Positions 15,371-25,212 of a stretch of 50,341 bases of DNA are shown one piece after another. The DNA comes from Anaerolineae bacterium (GTDB lineage: Bacteria > Chloroflexota > Anaerolineae > B4-G1 > SLSP01). The number at the start of each line of letters is the position of its first letter. Position 1 is the first letter of the stretch. The notes under the pieces were generated by a model. It made no database searches, was not told where the DNA came from, and worked only from the letters and a program-made list of their open reading frames with translations. Position numbers and translations under genes: made by a program. The stretch lies in assembly GCA_034432995.1 (NCBI GenBank), contig DAOUAY010000060.1, positions 1 through 50,341 of the forward strand, written 5' to 3'.

Positions 15371-16840
15371 TCACCCTTGCCGCATCCTGCGCCACGCAAA
15401 CGTTGCCAAGATCAGAATAAAGGCCAATACGGTGGGGAGCAGGAATGGCGCTGCCACACTCTCGGTTATCTGCGGCGGCCCAACGTCGATTGCGGGGATA
15501 GCATTCGTAGCCAACCCCGGTGTTTGTGGCGTGGGAGAGGCTGCGGGCATCAAGGTGTCGGCGGGCAATGCGGCAATGGATGGCGGAATCGAGCTACGAT
15601 CGAGGTGTGGCGCATCGACATCCTTGTGCGCATACCAGACCGTCGTATCCACCTCCAAACGGTTATCGTACACCACGTGGAGCCGGTTTCCCTGGCAGAC
15701 GACCATACGCTGGCCGTGTGGGTCCATATGGCGATTCTCGATGCGTTCATGAGCCGACCATTGCGCGCCGTCGAAAGTAGACACAAAGACCCCACTGTTA
15801 ACGCTGGTTACGGCGCGCAGGACGCCGGCGCTGTCTTTCGCCAGGAAGTTGAGGCCTCCAAAACCGGCATCCAGGCGGATGATTTCGACGGGATTGCTCC
15901 AGGTAACACCACCATCAGTAGACCACATGTGCATCCGGCGCGGGTTATGCCAGGTAAGATGCACCTCGTCTTTACCGAAGGCGAAAGGGGCGATGTCTGA
16001 GATCAAGGGCATCGTTTCACTTTGTTTGGCGATTGCCCGGTACGGCGCCCAGGTCTGCCCGGTATCCGGCGAGCGCAGATAGCCTACCTCGAAGTAGAGG
16101 CCATACACCTGCGACCGTTGGGTGATTCCAATATGTATCCGGCCTGCATCATCGATAATGGCGCTGGACAACAGGTAGGAAGGCTCTATTGTCGCAATCT
16201 CATAGATAGGTGTTGGGTCACTCCATGTTAAGCCACCATCGACCGATTGCAGTTGATAAACCGCGGATCGATATCCCTCAGCCTCAAAGGAGGCATAGAA
16301 GAGATAAAGTGTGCCAGATTTGTCCACATCGATCCGCACTGACCCTGCTTGAGCAATGAGCAACCGAGGCGTATCCCAGGCTCTTACATTCGCCGCATCT
16401 GCGAGCGGGGCGCGGCTATAATAGACGCTTCCTTGTACATCACGATCTGTCCATACCAGATGGACAACACCGTCTGGTGCGGTGACAGCAACCGACAAAT
16501 TGACCGCCAACTCATCGGATGTGGCCAGTACATCGACCGGGGCCGACAGGCTGCCGTCCTTATCCGTCCGGTAGTAAATTTCAGCTCCCCCCTCATGCCC
16601 TTTACCCCAGAAAATGTGCAGGTTCTGAAAGGCATCGCAGAACAACACCCCATTGCGATCTTTGCCCTCAGTCATGGGATAGGCAATGTCCACCGGACCG
16701 GTCCATCCAGGCGCGATACCTTGAGCGTACACCCGCTCATGCGCTGCCAGACCGGCGGACGCCAAAAACAGTAAGCACAGCACAATCTGGGCAGCCATTC
16801 TCGCTGTTATGTGCTTCATCTGATGCTCTCGCTTAGCCAT
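15371..16840 (-). CDS. BNR/Asp-box beta-propeller protein (sialidase-like fold), signal peptide plus C-terminal TM anchor
   Basis: Asp-boxes SVDGGLTWSDP, SPDTGQTWAPY and STDGGVTWSNP. N-terminal signal AAQIVLCLLFLASAGLAA. Pro-rich stalk, then LLPTVLAFILILATFAWRRMRQG at the C-terminus. No FRIP motif seen. Confidence 0.75.
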   Translation of the reverse strand: MAKREHQMKHITARMAAQIVLCLLFLASAGLAAHERVYAQGIAPGWTGPVDIAYPMTEGKDRNGVLFCDAFQNLHIFWGKGHEGGAEIYYRTDKDGSLSAPVDVLATSDELAVNLSVAVTAPDGVVHLVWTDRDVQGSVYYSRAPLADAANVRAWDTPRLLIAQAGSVRIDVDKSGTLYLFYASFEAEGYRSAVYQLQSVDGGLTWSDPTPIYEIATIEPSYLLSSAIIDDAGRIHIGITQRSQVYGLYFEVGYLRSPDTGQTWAPYRAIAKQSETMPLISDIAPFAFGKDEVHLTWHNPRRMHMWSTDGGVTWSNPVEIIRLDAGFGGLNFLAKDSAGVLRAVTSVNSGVFVSTFDGAQWSAHERIENRHMDPHGQRMVVCQGNRLHVVYDNRLEVDTTVWYAHKDVDAPHLDRSSIPPSIAALPADTLMPAASPTPQTPGLATNAIPAIDVGPPQITESVAAPFLLPTVLAFILILATFAWRRMRQG

Positions 16841-16916: not shown

Positions 16917-18065
16917 TTAGTAAGATGGAGGGTTGCCCCGTAAGTACGCCACCAGATTTCTACGGATCATAGACGCTCTTTCCCCGAAACAGGCCTCGAA
17001 CCAGAGCGAAAGGACGCCTTTGTTCCTGGCAATCGAGGGATCGAGGGCTAGAGCGCGCGTATAGCAGCGACGGGCAATCCGCATGTACCGCTTTTGGTAA
17101 GCGGTAAAGCCCAACGCTTCATAGCTTCTAGCTCGCGTCACCCGGCGGAAAGAAGGCGTAGCGTATCCGGCGCCATCCGCAGCAGCAAGCGCCGTTTTGA
17201 CAAAGTCCAGGCTGGATGCCAGGCCATCGGTTTCACTCGCCGCGTAGGTTGCCGCCGCTCCGGCTGCAATCGCTTTGCTCGCGCCGGTTCGTATGACATC
17301 CGCGTAGGCTGCGCCAAGATGCCGGTAAAAGTGCGCGTACATCGGGAACGTCACCTTGATCTTGGCCAGCGGGTTCTGCCACCACCAGACGCCTCCACCG
17401 TGCAGACGGTAAACACCCATCACCTCATTGATGTATCCGATGTCCCCATGCTGGGCAAACAACACGAAAAACGGCCAATCCATCGGTTGCTCAAGGTACC
17501 ATTCGGGCAACCCTCTGAACGCCCCAAGCCGGAGCATCACCGACGCCGTGGGGATGAAATTCAGGATCAAAAGATCTTCCAGGGTTGAAATTTCCTTCTG
17601 ATCCGCTGAACAGAACCGGTGCGATTCGCTCTGTCGATCCTCGGTCTGCACCATCACATCGTGGAAGCACATCGAGCACTCTGGATGCGCTTCCATGAAA
17701 TCTACCTGTTTCTGTAACTTGTATGGATCGGTCCAATAGTCGTCGCCTTCGCACGAAGCTATATATTTACCGCGCGCTCGCGGAAATTGAATGTGCGCTG
17801 TAATAGGAACACCCTTAGAGTATTGGTTTTCATGCTGGTAGATTGGCAATACCAGATTCGGATGCCGTTTCTCATATTCGCAGATGATCTCGGCGGTACC
17901 ATCGGTGGAGGCATCATCATGGACCAGAATCTCAAAAGGGAATGTGGTCTGCTGCATCACAAAACCTTCGAGCGCTTCACGGATGAAATGCACATGGTTG
18001 TAGGTGACGCAGTTAATGCTAACGAGCGGTACATCATGCATTGACATATCTCTCATAGAACACAT
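16917..18065 (-). CDS. Glycosyltransferase family 2 with helical C-terminal extension
   Basis: VSINCVTYNHVHFIREALEGF, ILVHDDASTDGT and CEGDDYW. Visibly AT-richer than neighbouring genes. Several in-frame ATGs (18065, 18056, 18047, 18041). Confidence 0.8.
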   Translation of the reverse strand: MCSMRDMSMHDVPLVSINCVTYNHVHFIREALEGFVMQQTTFPFEILVHDDASTDGTAEIICEYEKRHPNLVLPIYQHENQYSKGVPITAHIQFPRARGKYIASCEGDDYWTDPYKLQKQVDFMEAHPECSMCFHDVMVQTEDRQSESHRFCSADQKEISTLEDLLILNFIPTASVMLRLGAFRGLPEWYLEQPMDWPFFVLFAQHGDIGYINEVMGVYRLHGGGVWWWQNPLAKIKVTFPMYAHFYRHLGAAYADVIRTGASKAIAAGAAATYAASETDGLASSLDFVKTALAAADGAGYATPSFRRVTRARSYEALGFTAYQKRYMRIARRCYTRALALDPSIARNKGVLSLWFEACFGERASMIRRNLVAYLRGNPPSY

Positions 18066-18135: not shown

Positions 18136-19218
18136 TCACACACGACGACGTACTACCAACACCGTTACGGCGAGAACACACAGCATCAGTAACACAGCGC
18201 CCAGTATAAACGAATCCGACTGCGCAGACCGACTCTGTAGCGTAACCGCTGTAGGCGAATCCGCCGTCGCACCGAGTGTGAACTCAGAACCCAAATCGCC
18301 AACATCCACAGTGAAAATCAGCTGATCGCCGGAAACGTTGGTGCTTCCGACGGTAACGACGGCAAAGTCATTGCTGCTGCCGGTGGCGCGTTTGAGCAAA
18401 ACGTAGGTGCCCGTTGTACTGAACGAACCCTGCCCTCCGGTATCGGAGATGTCGAAAGTCAACGTGACTTGACCGCCGTCGGCTGCCTCATCGTGGACAT
18501 CCAACTGCCAGACACGCGCCCAGCGTTTGCCGACACCACCGGGCAAATTGCTGGTCACATTGGCAAAAGCATTATTGTTGTGCCCAAATATAATCCCATC
18601 GCCGGGATCATTGAGGAACGTACTGTCCGCGATCTCCAACCCGCCGGATGAAGCCGGACCAGGGCGCCGAGTTGAGATAATAGCAGCAATATCGTTCTGA
18701 TAGGCCAGAATCAGGTCGCCATGCCAACTGGTCGTCACTTTGTAGGCCGGACTACCATTCTGGAAGTTGATCCAGCCCACGTTTTCTCCCCAAGCGTAAC
18801 CAGCGAAGTCGCCGGTCACCGGGTCCACGGTTACCCCACCGCCTGTCGGTCTAAAGTCGATCCAGCCCACATTGAATCCCCAGGCGTAGCCAGACAGGTT
18901 ACCGACACCGTCGTTATTGACGCCATAGTTGTGGGCGGCATTGTTGGCGTAGCTGCAGGGACTGCCACTTATGCAGGTACCCAGGCGAATCCAGCCAACA
19001 TTCTCGCCCCATGCGTACCCTTCGAGATGGTCAGAGTAGACGGTCACGCCACCATTGTCCGGCGCAAAACTGAGCCAACCTACGTTGATACCCCAGGCCC
19101 ACTTGTCCGTCGGGTCGATGTTACTGGCAGCGAGAACGGCCGTACCAGACACCAGAAATAGCATCAACCCCACTAATAGCGCGCGAAGCAGGTGTTGGGT
19201 GCGTATCTCAATTTTCAT
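18136..19218 (-). CDS. Surface protein with four [KG][WY]AWGxNxGW[IL]x[FL] repeats, C-terminal TM anchor (uncharacterised family)
   Basis: ATG at 19218 with GGAGGA upstream. Signal peptide LLVGLMLFLVSGTAVLAA. Repeats KWAWGINVGWLSF, GYAWGENVGWIRL, GYAWGFNVGWIDF and GYAWGENVGWINF. Ends PTAVTLQSRSAQSDSFILGAVLLMLCVLAVTVLVVRRRV. Confidence 0.8.
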   Translation of the reverse strand: MKIEIRTQHLLRALLVGLMLFLVSGTAVLAASNIDPTDKWAWGINVGWLSFAPDNGGVTVYSDHLEGYAWGENVGWIRLGTCISGSPCSYANNAAHNYGVNNDGVGNLSGYAWGFNVGWIDFRPTGGGVTVDPVTGDFAGYAWGENVGWINFQNGSPAYKVTTSWHGDLILAYQNDIAAIISTRRPGPASSGGLEIADSTFLNDPGDGIIFGHNNNAFANVTSNLPGGVGKRWARVWQLDVHDEAADGGQVTLTFDISDTGGQGSFSTTGTYVLLKRATGSSNDFAVVTVGSTNVSGDQLIFTVDVGDLGSEFTLGATADSPTAVTLQSRSAQSDSFILGAVLLMLCVLAVTVLVVRRRV

Positions 19219-19300
19219 TGTATATCCTCCATGCCTGGATAAAAAACACTGAAACGATCCTCACAGCAATCCAGAGCATTGACCCGCCAACGTCCAGGCA

Positions 19301-20278
19301 TCATTGACCACCACGTACCGGCCATACGTATAACCTATAATCCACCTCGCCGCCGTCGGCCGCATTCTTGCCAATGTGATGCACGCGGGCCCCCCACATA
19401 CTTACGAAATAGGCGTTATACCGGTACGTGACGTGAGTCGTACTCGTCCAGTACCATCGTGACCATACATTGACAAAGGGGTGGTTCAACGGCAATGACG
19501 GGTTCTCCTGCCCATAATCCATCAGGCTATGCAGTTCGCGCACATTGGGCAGCCGCCAGTCGGTTTGATAGCTGCCATTGTTGCTGGTATCGCCGCAATT
19601 ACGGGCAATACCATCCGTGCCGGTCATGGTACCGGTTGCATTCAGTTGTTTGACATTCAAAGTAGCCGTAAACCAAGTGCTGCCAGATTCAGTGCCCTGA
19701 CAATTGGCGTTCTTGAGCCAGATCAGCCCGGTCATGTTGTCCGTCACCGTACCATTCCCATTGTCGGTGAAGCGTGGCACAAGCATATCGATACCCATTT
19801 GCAGGTCTCCGTCTACACCTGCCGGACAATTCGCAGTTCCACATATACACGCAACAAACGGACTTACTGTGCGATAACAAGCAGTTTGTCCTGTCTTGGC
19901 TACGGGGAGATATGGACGCGTTCCTGTGATCACACCCCACGCGCCTTCGCTCAGACCCCAAACCACCGTGCCACTCACGACTTTGGTTTGCGTGGCAGCG
20001 TTCGTGTAAGTGACCGGCGCCACAGACATGATGTCGTCCAGAGATACCATCGTACTGGTTCCTGGCCCGCTGCTGGGTTCTGTAGGTCCGGCCATCCTTT
20101 CGCTTGCCGCCCCGGTCGTCAGCCGGTCGTAGATCTGTTGCAGGGTATACATCTGCGAAGCAGGGTCCATAGGGCCGCCGGGGGGTTCGAGATTCCCAGC
20201 CAACACTATAGCTCCGGCTGAGAATAAAACACCGATTACGAATCCGACAGCTATGCCGATTGTTAATCGATTACGCAT
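19301..20278 (-). CDS. DUF1566 (Lcl C-terminal / C-type-lectin-like) domain protein with N-terminal membrane anchor
   Basis: ATG at 20278 with AGGAGA 6 nt upstream (the longer ORF reaches 20320). N-terminus MRNRLTIGIAVGFVIGVLFSAGAIVLAG. Contains TVTDNMTGLIWLKNANC...DWRLPNVRELHSL...YWTSTTH, the classic DUF1566 pattern. Confidence 0.8.
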   Translation of the reverse strand: MRNRLTIGIAVGFVIGVLFSAGAIVLAGNLEPPGGPMDPASQMYTLQQIYDRLTTGAASERMAGPTEPSSGPGTSTMVSLDDIMSVAPVTYTNAATQTKVVSGTVVWGLSEGAWGVITGTRPYLPVAKTGQTACYRTVSPFVACICGTANCPAGVDGDLQMGIDMLVPRFTDNGNGTVTDNMTGLIWLKNANCQGTESGSTWFTATLNVKQLNATGTMTGTDGIARNCGDTSNNGSYQTDWRLPNVRELHSLMDYGQENPSLPLNHPFVNVWSRWYWTSTTHVTYRYNAYFVSMWGARVHHIGKNAADGGEVDYRLYVWPVRGGQ

Positions 20279-20324
20279 TGTAATTCTCCTTTGCTTAGCA
20301 GACCTTGATTGACAACGCAAAGCC

Positions 20325-20355
20325 AGGAGAACACCGTAAAAACCGGCGTTCTCCT
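20325..20355 (-). other. Intercistronic hairpin (12-bp stem with one mismatch, 7-nt loop)
   Basis: AGGAGAACACCG-TAAAAAC-CGGCGTTCTCCT lies between the stop at 20452 and the start at 20278. No clear U-tract follows on the minus strand. Confidence 0.3.
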
Positions 20356-20451
20356 ACGATTGAGCCGCCTATTTCGGCACATTACCAGTTTACGTCAAAC
20401 CCCAGTTTTACCTCAATAATCAGCGTAAATCCGGACCCATAAGAAGCAATC

Positions 20452-21834
20452 TTAGTGTCGGCGACGACGGGCGCCCCACAATCCAATCGTCGCAACTACC
20501 CCACCAACCAGCAGCAATGCCCTATACGCACTGCGCGCAGCAATACGCTGCAAGTGTACGGACGTGGGCGCAGTGAGCAGTGTGGTGCTCACCGGACCGT
20601 GGAACGTGCTCACGCCCTTCACGTCGATGTCTTCCAGCCTATAGTAGTAGACCACAGCGGGTTGTACGTCCGTATCGAGCCACTCGTAAGTGCCACCCAT
20701 GGCCTCGCCTGGGAACTGCGGCGGGATAAGCGCGTCGTTCAACTGTGTGTAAGGTCCCTCGAACGCTGTGCTGCGGTAGAGATTGAAACCCACGTGGTCA
20801 AGCTCTTGAGCTGTTTCCCAAGTGACCAGCATTGCGGTTTCTTGAGGAATCACCTCGAAGCTAACCAGCGTCACCGCAGTGGGGGTGCCGTTGCCCAGCG
20901 TGAAATAGGAACCCAGGTTGGCGACACTCACATTGTTGAAAACGACCTGGTCGCCTGTATGGGGACCGGGAGCGGTGGCGATACCCGTAAAACCACCGCT
21001 GGTACCGCTGCGTTTGAGCAAGGTATAGGGGCCGCTGGGCATGGTTCCGAAACCCGCTTCACTGAAGTCGAAGGTGAGGGTCACAGCGCCGCCGTTGGTC
21101 CCGGCTCCATCGTGGGTGTCGAACTCCCAGATCCGCTGCCAGCGTGAGGTGACGCCCGCAGGACAGTCGGCAGGCGTTTCGCCAGTGCCGGTTTGGTGAC
21201 CAAAGATGATCCCATCGCCGGCATCGTTGAGGAAGCTGACATTGGCCATGCTCAATCCGGCGGATGAAGCCGGACCAGGCCGCCGCGTGGTGATAATGGC
21301 GGCGATGTTGTACAGGTAGTCTTCATGCAGATCGCCGCGCCAACTGGTCATCACCTTGTAAGACAAGCTGTCATTCTTGAAGCGAATCCAGCCGGTATTC
21401 TCGCCCCAGGCGTAGCCGTCGAAATCGCCGGTGACCGGGTCTACGGTGACCCCGCCGCCCCTGGGGCTAAAGTTGATCCAGCCGATGTTAGTCCCCCAGG
21501 CGTACCCAGACAGGTTACCTACGCCGTCATTGTTGACGCCGTAGTTACTGGCAAGAGTGTTAGTGTAGCTACATGGGCTGCCGCTCGTGCAGGTGCCCAG
21601 ACGGATCCAGCCGATATTCTCCCCCCAGGCGTAGCCTTCGAGATGATCGGAGTAGACGGTCACGCCGCCGTTGGTTAGCTCGAAACTAATCCAGCCTGCG
21701 TTAGTGCCCCAGGCCCACCTGTTGGTAGGATCGATGTTACCGGCGGCCAGAACGACAACCGCAGACGCCAGGAGCAAAACCAGCCCCACCAGCAGCGCGC
21801 GGGGCAATTGTTGGATGCGTAGTTTAATTTTCAT
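20452..21834 (-). CDS. Paralog of 18136-19218: WxNxGWI-repeat surface protein with an extra C-terminal domain and TM anchor
   Basis: ATG at 21834 with AAGGAGGA upstream. Repeats RWAWGTNAGWISF, GYAWGENIGWIRL, GYAWGTNIGWINF and GYAWGENTGWIRF. Extra module TAVTLVSFEV...WETAQELDHVGFNLYRS...YYYRLEDIDVKG. Ends PTSVHLQRIAARSAYRALLLVGGVVATIGLWGARRRRH. Confidence 0.8.
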   Translation of the reverse strand: MKIKLRIQQLPRALLVGLVLLLASAVVVLAAGNIDPTNRWAWGTNAGWISFELTNGGVTVYSDHLEGYAWGENIGWIRLGTCTSGSPCSYTNTLASNYGVNNDGVGNLSGYAWGTNIGWINFSPRGGGVTVDPVTGDFDGYAWGENTGWIRFKNDSLSYKVMTSWRGDLHEDYLYNIAAIITTRRPGPASSAGLSMANVSFLNDAGDGIIFGHQTGTGETPADCPAGVTSRWQRIWEFDTHDGAGTNGGAVTLTFDFSEAGFGTMPSGPYTLLKRSGTSGGFTGIATAPGPHTGDQVVFNNVSVANLGSYFTLGNGTPTAVTLVSFEVIPQETAMLVTWETAQELDHVGFNLYRSTAFEGPYTQLNDALIPPQFPGEAMGGTYEWLDTDVQPAVVYYYRLEDIDVKGVSTFHGPVSTTLLTAPTSVHLQRIAARSAYRALLLVGGVVATIGLWGARRRRH

Positions 21835-21922
21835 TGCATATCCTCCTTACTTGAATAGAGAAGGCGTTTGAAACGGATCGCCCGGCAGGCAGTACCCACC
21901 AAAGCATCCCAGCGCCCCGGCG

Positions 21923-22909
21923 TCATTGTTGGCCGCCCCGCACCGGCCATATGTATAGTCGATAATTTAGTGGATCTTCGACATGGTATGTTGCATTCTT
22001 GCCTAGATGGAACACACGGCCACCCCACATGCTCACGAACCAGGCGTTGCCGTTGTACGTGGCGTGGGTAGTACTCGTCCAATACCACCGGTTATAGACA
22101 TTGGTGAATGGATAAGGACGCGGCAATGAAGGCTGGTCCATCTGATAATCGATCAAGCTGTGCATCTCGCGCAGGTTGGGCAGCCGCCAATCGGTTTGAT
22201 GAAAGCCGCCGTTGCTGGTGTCACCGCAGCCGCGCCGTACACTGTCCGTGCCGATCATCTCGCCAGTCGCATTTAGTTCCGCCACATTCGCGATAGCAGT
22301 AAACCAGTCACTGCCAAATTCGGTACCCTGACAGTTAGCATTCTTGAGCCAGATCAGTCCGGTCATATTATCTGTCACTGTGCCATTATCATTGTCGGTA
22401 AAGCGTGGCGAAATCGCAGGGACTCCCATTTGGTAATACCCGTCTTGGCCTACCGGACAATTTTCGGTTCCACATGTGCAAGAGCTAAAAGGGCCTACTA
22501 TGCTAAAACAAGTCGTTTGCCCGGTCTTGAGTAGGGGCAAATACGGACGCGTTCCCGCAATCTCGCCCCAAGCACCTGAACTCAGCCCCCAGAATGCCCG
22601 GCCACTCACGACGTCTGCCGATGTCGCGGCGTTCGTTTGTATGGCCGGCGCCGCAGCCATGACCTGGTCCAGAGTAACCATCGTGCCGGTTCCCGGCCCG
22701 CTGCTGGGTTCCGTGAACGTAGTCATCTTCGTTCCCGCCGCGCCGGTCGTCAGCCGGGCGTAGATCTGTTGCAGGGTATACATCTGCGAGGCAGGATCCG
22801 TCGGGCCGCTGGCGGGGTCGAGAGTCCCCGCCAACACTACCGCCCCAGCCGAGAGCGCGATGCCAATAACAACGCCAATAACGACTCCGATTGTCAATTT
22901 GTTACGCAT
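21923..22909 (-). CDS. DUF1566 domain protein with N-terminal membrane anchor (paralog of 19301-20278)
   Basis: ATG at 22909 with AAGGAGGA upstream. MRNKLTIGVVIGVVIGIALSAGAVVLAG, and TVTDNMTGLIWLKNANC...DWRLPNLREMHSL...YWTSTTH. Confidence 0.8.
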   Translation of the reverse strand: MRNKLTIGVVIGVVIGIALSAGAVVLAGTLDPASGPTDPASQMYTLQQIYARLTTGAAGTKMTTFTEPSSGPGTGTMVTLDQVMAAAPAIQTNAATSADVVSGRAFWGLSSGAWGEIAGTRPYLPLLKTGQTTCFSIVGPFSSCTCGTENCPVGQDGYYQMGVPAISPRFTDNDNGTVTDNMTGLIWLKNANCQGTEFGSDWFTAIANVAELNATGEMIGTDSVRRGCGDTSNGGFHQTDWRLPNLREMHSLIDYQMDQPSLPRPYPFTNVYNRWYWTSTTHATYNGNAWFVSMWGGRVFHLGKNATYHVEDPLNYRLYIWPVRGGQQ

Positions 22910-22988: not shown

Positions 22989-24017
22989 TCATTCAGCAGG
23001 GCTAGAGGTACCTTTCTGACGATCCATGTTCTGGATCGTCCCAAACGCTTTCTGAAAATCAAGCCAACGCGACGGCGAAACCCGCGCGCTGTTCGTCGTC
23101 GCAAAGCTGTCCGGCCCTACATACTGGCCCTCGATGTGACAGCCCTGCGCGGCCATTTTCGAGTGCAGCATCTCCCACACCACGGCCGGGGCCTGGCAGA
23201 ATTGTTCGTACCCTACAACCAGTTTCCGGGCTTCATCCACGCGCGAGAAGCCCTCGTCCACGGCCTTTTGGGTGTAGTAAACCTGACCCGCCACCTGGGT
23301 GATGGGATCATGCTCGATCAGCCAACGATATTCCGGGGGTTTGAAGCCATACCACCTCTCTTCCGCGCCGAAATACTCCAGACGTTTTTCCATAATGGAC
23401 TGCATCACATAGAGTGGATCGCGCTTGACGTGAACAAAGAGAACCTTGTCGAAAGCCGCATCCAAAAAGGGGATATTCCAGTTGAGCAACATCGCTTTCA
23501 TGGCGAGCGGCTTGTCCAGGGCGGCTTCCAACGTCGCCAGTTCGGCATTGAGGCGCGCAACATCCACTTTTTCCAACGCCTCCGGCGAAACAACGTTCGC
23601 ATCCTGCTCGAACGTGAAAAACCGCCGCCAGAAGTACCAAAACTCGTGCGGCGCTGTCGCCCCTTTCGTTTTCCCGTGAGAGGACGTGTAGGCGTCGACA
23701 TTCTGCCGGTTGGTGATCTCGTTCATGTAATCGTGTTCGAACAAGATCTGCTGGACGCGCGCCCCGATGTACGGCGCTCGATAGAATCTGGAGACGGTAT
23801 TGGAAGGGTAGCCCCAACGCCCACTGGCGGCCAACCACTGAAAGAGAAGCGTGGTGCCGCTGCGCGGGACGCCCATGATCAACAAGAGTGGAAAACGCGG
23901 CTTTGTGTATGCCTGGTTCACCGTCTCCTGACAGACCGAGAGCAAGGTGTTCAACTCCGTCAGCAATTGCTCCAGCGTGACGCTTTTACGAAACTCAGCC
24001 GTTGGCGATGTGTTCAT
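22989..24017 (-). CDS. Sulfotransferase family protein (PAPS-dependent type)
   Basis: LLIMGVPRSGTTLLFQWL matches the 5'-PSB loop of sulfotransferases. ATG at 24017 has AGAGGTG 5 nt upstream (the track ORF begins at GTG 24023). Confidence 0.7.
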   Translation of the reverse strand: MNTSPTAEFRKSVTLEQLLTELNTLLSVCQETVNQAYTKPRFPLLLIMGVPRSGTTLLFQWLAASGRWGYPSNTVSRFYRAPYIGARVQQILFEHDYMNEITNRQNVDAYTSSHGKTKGATAPHEFWYFWRRFFTFEQDANVVSPEALEKVDVARLNAELATLEAALDKPLAMKAMLLNWNIPFLDAAFDKVLFVHVKRDPLYVMQSIMEKRLEYFGAEERWYGFKPPEYRWLIEHDPITQVAGQVYYTQKAVDEGFSRVDEARKLVVGYEQFCQAPAVVWEMLHSKMAAQGCHIEGQYVGPDSFATTNSARVSPSRWLDFQKAFGTIQNMDRQKGTSSPAE

Positions 24018-25212
24018 CACCACACCTCTGCTTGATCTCTGGCCCGTGGGCCGCCGCCATACGCACGATCTGGCAAATCACGCCGATCTCCTCCGGCCCA
24101 ACCGCGGTGCCCGTCGGCAACGACATCACCCGCTGGGTCAGCCGCTCCGTCTCTGGCAACAACAGGCCCGCGTGCGGAAAGTAAGATCGATACGGTTCCA
24201 TTTCGTGGCAGCCGGGGTAGAAATAGCGCCGCGCCAGCACGTTCTCGGCGTGCAGGATGTTCACCAGGTCGTCGCGGCTGACGCCGGCGGCGCTTTCATC
24301 CACCTCGACGATGACGTACTGGTAGTTATTGCGCTCGGTTTCATCATACGCGATCAACTGAAGGCCCGGTATGCCCTGCAAACCGGCCTGATACGCTTCG
24401 TAGTTGCGGCGATTGGCGGCGATAAACGCATCCAGCGACTCCAGCCCGGTCAGTCCCATCGCCGCCGAGATTTCGGACATCTTGCCGTTCGTGCCGACGT
24501 AGATGACCCGGTCGTAGCCGGCAAAGCCAAAGTTCGTCATCAGGCGGATCTTGGCGGCCAGAGCGTCGTCGTTGGTCACCACCGCGCCGCCCTCGAAGGT
24601 GTTGAAGAACTTGGTGGCGTGAAAGCTGAAAATCTCCACCGCGCCAAAGTTGCCGATCATCTGCCCCTTGTAGGAGTTGCCGAAGGCGTGCGCGGCGTCG
24701 AACATCAGTTTCAACCCGCGGCGTTGGCTGATTTCGGCCAACGCTTCGATAGCGCAGGGCCGGCCCCACACGTGCACGCCCATGATGCCGCTCGTGCGCG
24801 GGGTGATCATCGCTTCCACTTTGGCCGGATTCAAGTTGTGCGTGGCCGGGTCCACGTCGCAGAAGACCGGGGTGATCTCCTGCCATTGCAGCGCGTGAGC
24901 GGTGGCAATAAAGGTGAACGACGGCACGATCACCTCGCCGCTCATTCCTAATGCGCGGGAAGCGATCTCCAGCGCCACCGTGGCGTTGCACATGGCGATG
25001 CAGTGCTTGACGCCCACGAATTCGGCGATGCGCGCTTCGAATTCCTTCACGAAAGGGCCGCGGTTGGTCAGCCAGCGGCGGTCGAGCAGGTCATTGATGC
25101 GGGCCAATAAGGCTTCGCGGTCGCCGACGTTCGGCCGGCCAACGTGGAGCGCTTCGGCAAAGGCCGGCGTCCCCCCAAATAAAGCAAGTGAGGCGAGAGC
25201 AGTTTTCGACAT
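23995..25212 (-). CDS. DegT/DnrJ/EryC1/StrS-family PLP-dependent sugar aminotransferase
   Basis: FVKEFEARIAEFVGVKHCIAMCNATVALEIA and VEIFSFHATKFFNTFEGGAVVTND (PLP-lysine context SFHxxK). Confidence 0.85.
   Translation of the reverse strand: MSKTALASLALFGGTPAFAEALHVGRPNVGDREALLARINDLLDRRWLTNRGPFVKEFEARIAEFVGVKHCIAMCNATVALEIASRALGMSGEVIVPSFTFIATAHALQWQEITPVFCDVDPATHNLNPAKVEAMITPRTSGIMGVHVWGRPCAIEALAEISQRRGLKLMFDAAHAFGNSYKGQMIGNFGAVEIFSFHATKFFNTFEGGAVVTNDDALAAKIRLMTNFGFAGYDRVIYVGTNGKMSEISAAMGLTGLESLDAFIAANRRNYEAYQAGLQGIPGLQLIAYDETERNNYQYVIVEVDESAAGVSRDDLVNILHAENVLARRYFYPGCHEMEPYRSYFPHAGLLLPETERLTQRVMSLPTGTAVGPEEIGVICQIVRMAAAHGPEIKQRCGDEHIANG

Follow-up and report, generated by a model that had tools for sequence, protein, structure and literature searches.

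The 50,341-nucleotide stretch of Anaerolineae DNA considered here (contig DAOUAY010000060.1, called the window below) carries two colinear copies of a gene pair, each formed by a gene for a DUF1566/Lcl_C protein (D) and a gene for a protein with tryptophan-rich repeats (R). The two pairs, D1-R1 and D2-R2, are paralogous, and the same succession of D and R recurs as a conserved operon across many phyla. The reading that we place first, with about even confidence, is that a widespread two-gene operon, which would encode a bipartite surface ligand-binding module, is present here in two diverged copies, with D as the variable lectin of the module and R as its constant partner. The D family is already known and tandem duplication is ordinary. 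What appears to be new is the conserved D-R operon, its place inside the cassettes of diversity-generating retroelements (DGRs), and the size of the unnamed family to which the R domain belongs; no description of any of the three was found in the open-access literature, and one may exist elsewhere.

All four genes lie on the minus strand. D1 (21923-22909) encodes a protein of 328 amino acids and is followed by R1 (20452-21834), a repeat protein of 460 amino acids; D2 (19301-20278), the 325-amino-acid paralog of D1, is followed by R2 (18136-19218), a repeat protein of 360 amino acids. An earlier reading of the window, made from its sequence only, had proposed a tandem duplication of a two-gene module, and its open reading frames (ORFs), coordinates, strand, and paralogy all stand: D1 and D2 are 68% identical over 327 amino acids (E 3e-170), and R1 and R2 are 63% identical over 333 amino acids (E 8e-142), R1 having about 100 additional C-terminal residues before the anchor that are absent from R2. 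The shared peptides that it quoted are visible in the sequence, as are strong Shine-Dalgarno sites, which are of the GGAGGA/AGGAGA type and lie 6 to 8 nucleotides ahead of the ATG in all four genes. The start of D2 is the ATG at 20278, which has such a site, and not the TTG at 20320. The source genome, a 5.06-Mb metagenome-assembled genome in 729 contigs, has two genes of each family and no more, all of them paired and all within this stretch.

The duplication dates far back, and purifying selection acts on both copies. Synonymous divergence (dS, Nei-Gojobori) is 1.07 between D1 and D2 and 1.35 between R1 and R2, and the ratio of nonsynonymous to synonymous divergence (dN/dS) is 0.21 and 0.20, respectively, and neither copy is a pseudogene. 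The most constrained part of the pair is the R repeat domain, residues 31-175 in both proteins (21310-21744 in R1 and 18694-19128 in R2, minus strand), with 79% identity and a dN/dS of 0.086; the lectin tip of D is likewise constrained, at 0.085. The same double pair, with its surrounding locus, occurs in at least two other lineages. In assembly GCA_040364335.1 (L030/L031), the order is sulfotransferase, D, an R of about 461 amino acids, D, an R of 360 amino acids, and a family 2 glycosyltransferase (GT2), as in the window, and a JGI metagenome contig (L116) has the window's order with one additional D, giving D-R-D-D-R. In genome G011, of the window's own genus, the order DegT, sulfotransferase, D is kept up to the contig end, and its D is 100% identical over 249 amino acids to a D of L030, so that G011 and L030 represent one species. 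The L030 orthologs of R1, R2, and D2 are 80 to 85% identical to the window proteins (D2, 85%), whereas D1 and its positional counterpart (L030_D1) share only 68 to 69%, and D1 is thus diverging faster than its neighbors. Compared with L116_Da, D1 is 79% identical as a whole, with full identity (100%) over the final 30 aligned columns, which belong to the tip, and a diverged middle (window 21923-22909 against L030:6048-7022 and L116:2105-3079). These alignments suggest that the first D position holds mosaic alleles, produced by recombination or allele replacement.

The linkage of D and R reaches far beyond this lineage. A scan for the R domain, with one genome kept per species, yielded at least 492 relatives, and neighborhoods were taken from the best 80 loci, which are not a random sample; a search of their six-frame ORFs with profiles of D and R gave 81 R genes, of which 74 were evaluable. 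The loci span Chloroflexota, Gemmatimonadota, Melioribacteraceae, Desulfobacterota, Thiomargarita and other Gammaproteobacteria, Planctomycetota, Verrucomicrobiota, Nitrospirae, Patescibacteria, an Acidovorax isolate, and other groups. D stands directly upstream of R, on the same strand and within 750 nucleotides, at 56 of the 74 R genes; at another 6 there are DGR genes between or beside the two, and at 4 D is downstream of R on the same strand. No D ORF was found on the opposite strand at the evaluable R loci. D and R are therefore adjacent and co-oriented in 66 of 74 loci over many phyla, and D followed by R is a conserved operon, which bears out the proposal that the pair is a conserved two-gene surface module and that its members occur together outside this genome. 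The number of D genes per R varies: in ten loci a single R is preceded by two to four D genes, L032 has three Lcl_C genes and then a single R of 520 amino acids beside YceG and GidA, and L117 has three successive D-R pairs, so that tandem arrays or several D genes per R are found in L117, L038, L032, and L116. In genome G026, the R of a lone D-R pair is 68% identical, and the pair adjoins dnaE, glycan genes being absent; there, as in L032, the pair has moved as a unit into unrelated surroundings. When the search was begun from the D side, R abutted D in three of four fresh look-ups, the exception being ringed by transposases. No third gene family recurs near the pair among the 80 loci, the large extra clusters being antisense ORFs of R and D. 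On three ENA contigs (L120-L122), D or D-R units are flanked by transposase genes of the ISL3, IS66, mutator, and DDE_Tnp_1 types, and R domains are 60 to 65% identical across phyla; together these observations suggest horizontal spread of the module.

D1 and D2 match Pfam PF07603 (Lcl_C, formerly DUF1566) with 82.9 and 73.3 bits, above the gathering threshold of 34.9 bits, and in D1 the match spans residues 176-310. The sequence of D1 begins with an N-terminal hydrophobic signal or anchor, continues with an N-module (SQMYTLQQIYARL...FTEPSSGPGTGTMVTLDQVM; residues 29-88, 22646-22825, minus strand) and a cysteine-rich linker, and closes with a C-type-lectin-like domain ending in IWPVRGGQQ. In the AlphaFold2 (AF2) model, this domain has a predicted local distance difference test score (pLDDT) above 90 over residues 170-300, and Foldseek matches it to the C-terminal domains of Legionella Lcl (8q4e; probability 1.0, E 7.7e-4, TM score 0.61) and of Bdellovibrio Bd2740 (8oks; probability 1.0, TM score 0.71 on the target), both of them adhesin tips. 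As modeled, D is a C-type-lectin-like Lcl_C protein with the fold of the solved Lcl C-terminal domain. The earlier statement that neither family has an assigned role therefore stands for R but not for D, as DUF1566 is a known C-type-lectin-like adhesin tip and DGR target domain.

The N-module, which follows the signal sequence, is a hallmark of the D subfamily that neighbors R, where it is kept as SQMYTLQQIYxRL...FTEPxSGPGxGTMxTLDEIM. Its invariant or near-invariant positions in the alignment are T45, L46, Y50, R52, L53, F65, T66, E67, P68, P72, T76, and L80, and the monomer model of this part is of moderate confidence only, with a pLDDT of 50 to 70. Some R-neighboring D proteins have repeated shaft-like segments between the N-module and the tip. 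Across lineages, the N terminus of D has a charged n-region, 10 to 25 uncharged residues, and, after these, the conserved junction ...AG|[SND]L[DN][SP]P; in the diderm relatives this N terminus is an ordinary cleavable signal peptide. This makes it doubtful that D is anchored at its N terminus, as the sequence-only reading had it; the hydrophobic stretch of the window's D proteins may also be a cleavable signal peptide rather than an anchor.

R1 and R2 each contain four units of the form A-W-[GS]-x-N-x-G-W-[IL]-x-F, the core residues of which are invariant across 24 homologs. R2 consists of a signal peptide, a four-hairpin Trp-rich domain, a beta-sandwich module, the motif PTAVTL, a transmembrane (TM) helix, and the tail RRRV, and R1 has the same parts with the extra module of about 100 amino acids after the beta-sandwich, PTSVHL as its motif, and RRRRH at its end. 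The AF2 model of R2 (pLDDT 82.4, predicted TM score 0.74) places four beta-hairpins in residues 34-152, each built on A-W-G-x-N-x-G-W-I-x-F, with strands assigned by DSSP at 34-43/47-50, 64-71/75-78, 107-114/118-121, and 137-144/148-152, followed by a second all-beta module at residues 175-317 and a C-terminal helix at 336-359 that precedes RRRV. The repeat domain is acidic and rich in Asp. R1 and R2 have no Pfam or NCBIfam match, including R subregions scanned against Pfam at E ≤ 10 with a copy of Pfam that did not contain PF26628; precomputed matches to PF26628 (DUF8202) exist on some R homologs and are marked as faint in the two that carry a confidence mark. A profile search of PDB sequences with the R domain gave no match, and a Foldseek search with the R2 model, a step that the earlier reading had suggested for the repeat domain, found no fold in PDB or BFVD at E ≤ 1e-3. 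PHROGs and PADLOC gave no match for D1, R1, D2, or R2, and with no BFVD fold match for R, a phage or defense origin was rejected.

The R domain nevertheless belongs to a very large family: an exhaustive search with the 145-amino-acid domain gave 5,736 cluster representatives at E ≤ 1e-3, and 2,729 under the stricter limit of E ≤ 1e-10. In 255 collected proteins, it starts at residue 31 in the median and at one of the first 80 residues in 253, and nearly always a signal peptide immediately precedes it. These proteins range from 160 to 3,269 amino acids, from minimal forms of about 170 to 200 amino acids with little beyond the repeat domain to long chains in which the domain is followed by variable PKD, Big, cadherin, TSP3, dockerin, or Peptidase_C13 modules. 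At least 100 of the 255 end in an anchor or sorting tail, which is a TM helix plus basic tail in 75, of the YLPLVL[KR] type in 19, IPTL-like in 3, PEP-CTERM-like in 2, and dockerin-like in 1. The tails of R1 and R2, composed of PT[AS]VxL, a TM helix, and RRR, have no NCBIfam sorting-domain match (LPXTG, PEP-CTERM, or IPTL-CTERM). The YLPLVL type is a recurrent [YF][LIV]P[LIVM][LIVM][LIVM][KRN] motif no more than about 10 residues from the stop, with no TM helix, in mostly Chloroflexota-like proteins (among them P0029, P0042, P0071, P0078, P0088, P0100, P0147, P0165, P0187, and P0205), and it resembles an unrecognized sorting or attachment tag.

Parts of the R proteins recur elsewhere. The extra module of R1 (VSFEV...GFNLYRS...YYYRLEDID; 20455-20877, minus strand), which sits between two PT[AS]VxL motifs and has no Pfam match at E ≤ 10, is found in five other ORFs of the genome at 34 to 68% identity (C576:222-668, C576:2154-2630, C54:1288-1620, C212:14879-15148, and C103:13127-13438) and is thus a portable module placed before the anchor. 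The beta-sandwich module of R2 (residues ~188-325) lies also inside giant frames of 2,100 to 5,200 amino acids in related Anaerolineae genomes (G009:C34:37329-37721, G001:C23:61471-61860, G026:C55:6897-7295, G017:C207:33723-34127, and G002:C95:5028-5417), and it is therefore a building block that R2 has in common with surface proteins of very large size.

It could be supposed that R, as a tightly linked downstream gene that often serves several D genes and in its minimal form is hardly more than the repeat domain, is an export, folding, or maturation factor for D, akin to a chaperone or usher, rather than its partner at the surface. The long adhesin-type extensions and C-terminal surface-sorting tails of many R proteins fit displayed proteins, however, and R is unlike known chaperone or usher folds; we regard this explanation as improbable.

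In a Desulfococcaceae locus (L079), a template repeat lies 0.7 kb downstream of the 3' end of D and has 21 mismatches to it, 19 of them at template adenines, and in a verrucomicrobial locus (L081), two D genes compared with one template have 22 of 23 and 21 of 21 mismatches at adenine sites. D is a true A-to-N-diversified DGR target in both. With reverse transcriptase (RT) and template repeat (TR) abbreviated, the cassettes read R-D-Avd-TR-RT in L079, D-D-(MutS-like ORF)-Avd-TR-RT-R in L081, D-RT-R in L040, Avd-RT-R in L044, RT-R in L076, Avd-R in L070, and D-D-Avd-(RT fragments)-R in L091. R is the last gene of several of them, and where a full-length RT precedes it (L040, L044, L076, and L081), 4 to 26 nucleotides separate the stop-to-stop ORFs. 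D is thus of a family with a recognized ligand-binding surface at its tip, and R remains with D even inside DGR cassettes. Between the D targets and Avd of L081 lies a 106-amino-acid ORF (L081:2179-2499, JABGOW010000201.1) that resembles a fragment of MutS domain I and is probably one of the accessory genes that Wu et al. (2018) class as "MSL".

The window's own D genes are another matter. That homologous D genes are targeted in L079 and L081, and that D1 shares just 69% identity with its positional ortholog while D2, R1, and R2 keep 80 to 85%, might be taken to mean that D1 and D2 are current DGR targets whose divergence was produced in this way. The window has no template repeat, mismatches between D1 and D2 fall on A sites in 18 of 67 and 12 of 64 cases, with no adenine bias, and there is no RT in the window, the RVT_1 matches of the genome being confined to contigs C23 and C30. 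The divergence of D1 is moreover spread along the gene in a mosaic, with a tip identical to that of L116_Da and a tip dN/dS of 0.085. An active DGR at this locus was rejected, and the idea that the paralogs were shaped by one is effectively refuted. The RT ORF on contig C23 (C23:2186-2776, minus strand) belongs to a 354-amino-acid frame and matches RVT_1 with 65 bits.

The window as a whole is a single long minus-strand glycan locus of the ATP-binding cassette (ABC) transporter type. Its genes include ABC2_membrane and ABC_tran components, many glycosyltransferases of the GT2 and GT4 families, DegT, hexapeptide and GNAT acyltransferases, a methyltransferase, a polysaccharide deacetylase, a Wzy_C protein, a BNR protein, and a sulfotransferase. 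The sulfotransferase (22989-24023, minus strand; Pfam Sulfotransfer_3) is directly upstream of D1 and a GT2 glycosyltransferase (16917-18065, minus strand; Pfam Glycos_transf_2) directly downstream of R2. Two genes downstream of R2, and in the same place in L030 and L116, is a BNR/sialidase-like beta-propeller protein of 489 amino acids (15371-16840, minus strand) that has a signal at its N terminus and a TM helix at its C terminus. The gap between R1 and D2 holds a terminator-like hairpin (20324-20356, minus strand; 13-bp stem, weak T tail), a consensus match only, and shuffled sequence yields matches of this kind no less often.

Of 61 related genomes, only G026, which is of a different genus, yielded a full-length R homolog, and only G011 and G026 yielded high-scoring D homologs. 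Within the window's genus, the sulfotransferase occurs only in the window genome and G011, that is, only in genomes that also carry the pair; the downstream GT2 is absent from the 11 other same-genus genomes searched (the G011 contig ends before this position) and adjoins the pair in L030 and L116. The pair belongs to a variable variant of the glycan locus, and the sulfotransferase is co-inherited with the pair in this lineage only. No relative has an empty insertion site, and insertion of the pair into the glycan locus is for this reason not demonstrable. The confinement of the pair in this genus to the sulfotransferase and GT2 variant, together with the binding of sulfated glycosaminoglycans by the solved Lcl_C domain (PMC11162425), would suit a role for the pair in the glycan pathway itself, as a chain-length, attachment, or organizing factor for the sulfated polysaccharide of the locus. 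Outside the lineage, however, no glycan cluster surrounds the pair, whose neighbors are dnaE, YceG, cytochrome genes, transposases, or DGRs; no glycan gene recurs among the 80 loci, and we consider such a role very improbable. The glycan setting emphasized in the sequence-only reading is accordingly a feature of this lineage rather than a general one, most other pairs being in unrelated contexts or DGR cassettes. A more local hypothesis, weakly supported, is that a sulfated glycan of the cell itself may be the ligand of D or R; it is reasonable because a sulfotransferase belongs to the locus with which the module travels and because sulfated glycans are bound by one Lcl_C domain of solved structure.

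In the mechanism that we propose, D would be the secreted variable subunit, exported by its signal peptide and made up of the N-module, shaft repeats in some relatives, and the ligand-binding Lcl_C tip. R would be the constant partner, with the Trp-rich domain at its mature N terminus, variable stalk or adhesin modules behind it and, here, the TM helix and Arg tail in the membrane. R would hold or present D at the cell surface, probably through the N-module of D, and one R would serve one or several D variants. In this Anaerolineae lineage, the duplication of the module is ancient, and the module travels with the sulfotransferase-containing ABC-type glycan locus. Assembly of D with R is suggested by their co-translation from one operon, and R fits the part of a shared base because several D genes may accompany one R, DGRs diversify D and never R, the R domain is constrained, and the N-module of D is conserved yet folds poorly by itself in the models. 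Physical contact between the two proteins, the surfaces that would meet, and the ligand are inferred. A further claim, which we put forward tentatively and think somewhat doubtful, is that the four-hairpin domain is a dedicated docking base for fibers tipped with DUF1566 domains, so that D and R would be a two-component surface receptor system in many phyla that has not been described before, with R as the constant subunit and D as the exchangeable or DGR-hypermutated one that binds the ligand, and R would be an unrecognized, conserved accessory of a whole class of DGR cassettes.

Some of the evidence on a D-R assembly has two sides, and some weighs against it. A natural fusion of R and Lcl_C domains favors the assembly, but such fusions are rare, with one clear and one partial case among 255 proteins. 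The clear one, P0163, is a giant metagenomic surface protein of 3,269 amino acids that has both domains in a single chain; the Trp-repeat domain is present at least twice and Lcl_C twice, along with Big_13, Big_6, cadherin-like, Peptidase_C13, CHB_HEX_C, and dockerin modules. The distance matrices of adjacent R and D proteins are correlated (r 0.49-0.50, p 0.001, vs 0.51 for the two halves of D), which counts in favor of the pairing and fits inheritance as a unit, but can be explained by co-inheritance alone. The tails of 155 of the 255 R proteins, many of them from fragments, are unclassified, and some minimal R proteins, such as that of L081, truly have no recognizable anchor. When it was asked whether R tracks the N-module or the tip of D, the apparent "N-module only" ORFs proved to be an Lcl_C protein with a Pfam match, a frame interrupted by masked sequence, and a protein with a divergent CLec-like end. 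The link to sulfated glycans extends to about three related lineages only. Finally, 8 of the 74 evaluable R genes have no D within the flank, so R does not occur with D exclusively.

These last eight loci also bear on the possibility that D and R are independent binders that work in parallel without contact, the hairpins of R binding carbohydrate or the envelope and D binding a second ligand, with the two co-expressed for the same adhesion or sheath-organizing task. The R domain is aromatic rich, repetitive, and all beta, as many glycan-binding repeats are, and it is fused to PKD, Big, cadherin, TSP3, and dockerin modules, while the window pair lies in a glycan locus and adjoins a sulfotransferase. 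The domain matches no known carbohydrate- or wall-binding repeat family, however, by sequence at E ≤ 10 or by fold, and cell-wall and choline-binding repeat families in particular gave no hidden Markov model or fold match. The strict order, the single strand, and the near-exclusive pairing with one DUF1566 subfamily over monoderm and diderm phyla exceed what co-regulation usually produces, and an envelope ligand common to all those phyla is hard to name. Independent binding is, on this evidence, unlikely, though it is to be taken seriously, and the bipartite module of lectin and partner is the reading retained in what follows.

DUF1566/Lcl_C proteins have so far been treated as stand-alone proteins, and one large subfamily of them is almost always encoded with a partner. 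That partner contains a domain with thousands of relatives, no solved structure, no model in the copy of Pfam used, only faint DUF8202 matches on some of these relatives, and no mention in the literature searched. If D and R do form a complex, it would explain how secreted lectin subunits are retained at the surface, would add a new conserved component to DGR biology, and would provide much protein dark matter of Chloroflexota, Desulfobacterota, large sulfur bacteria, Patescibacteria, and others with a role. For the genome at hand, the analysis also points to a possible pairing of protein and glycan, with a lectin encoded beside a sulfated-glycan pathway, in the envelope of an uncultured member of the Anaerolineae.

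Among known systems, the choline-binding CW_binding_1 and SLH repeats offer an analogy only. Like R, they are short aromatic- or Gly-rich hairpin repeats of exported proteins in which a constant module is combined with variable functional parts; unlike them, R has no sequence or fold match, comprises a fixed set of four N-terminal hairpins rather than an open-ended array, and has as its conserved neighbor the protein D and not a wall-polymer pathway. The Bdellovibrio bacteriovorus protein Bd2740 (8oks) has the lectin-domain fold of D, at a sequence identity of only 12%; the comparison covers the lectin domain. Some D relatives have shaft-like repeats between the N-module and the tip. To our knowledge, Bd2740 has no R-like partner.

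Closer parallels come from Legionella and from DGRs. The C-terminal domain of L. pneumophila Lcl has a C-type-lectin-like fold, trimerizes, and binds sulfated glycosaminoglycans (PMC11162425). D and Lcl share the Pfam domain and the lectin-like fold at the C terminus, both are exported and surface associated, and the sulfated glycans bound by Lcl have a parallel in the sulfotransferase that adjoins D; D differs in having its own N-module and Cys-rich linker in place of collagen repeats and a coiled coil and in being encoded with a partner gene, R, that looks obligatory and that Lcl does not have. Wu et al. (2018, PMC5758913) described a DGR accessory, CH1 (conserved hypothetical 1), as small, acidic, motif-less, and confined to avd-less DGRs. 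Compared by description only, minimal R proteins (~170 to 200 amino acids, Asp rich) are likewise small, acidic, motif-less, and conserved beside DGRs, but R occurs with avd in L044, L079, and L081. DUF1566 itself is the CLec2, or category "d", class of DGR variable proteins, which includes Legionella LdtA (Wu et al. 2018, PMC5758913). The D proteins share with that class the domain family and the C-terminal end ...VWPVRGG, and D homologs in L079 and L081 are diversified with Avd, TR, and RT; D1 and D2 of the window have no TR, RT, or adenine-biased variation. Whereas the published description of the class includes no Trp-repeat partner gene, R is present here in several of its cassettes.

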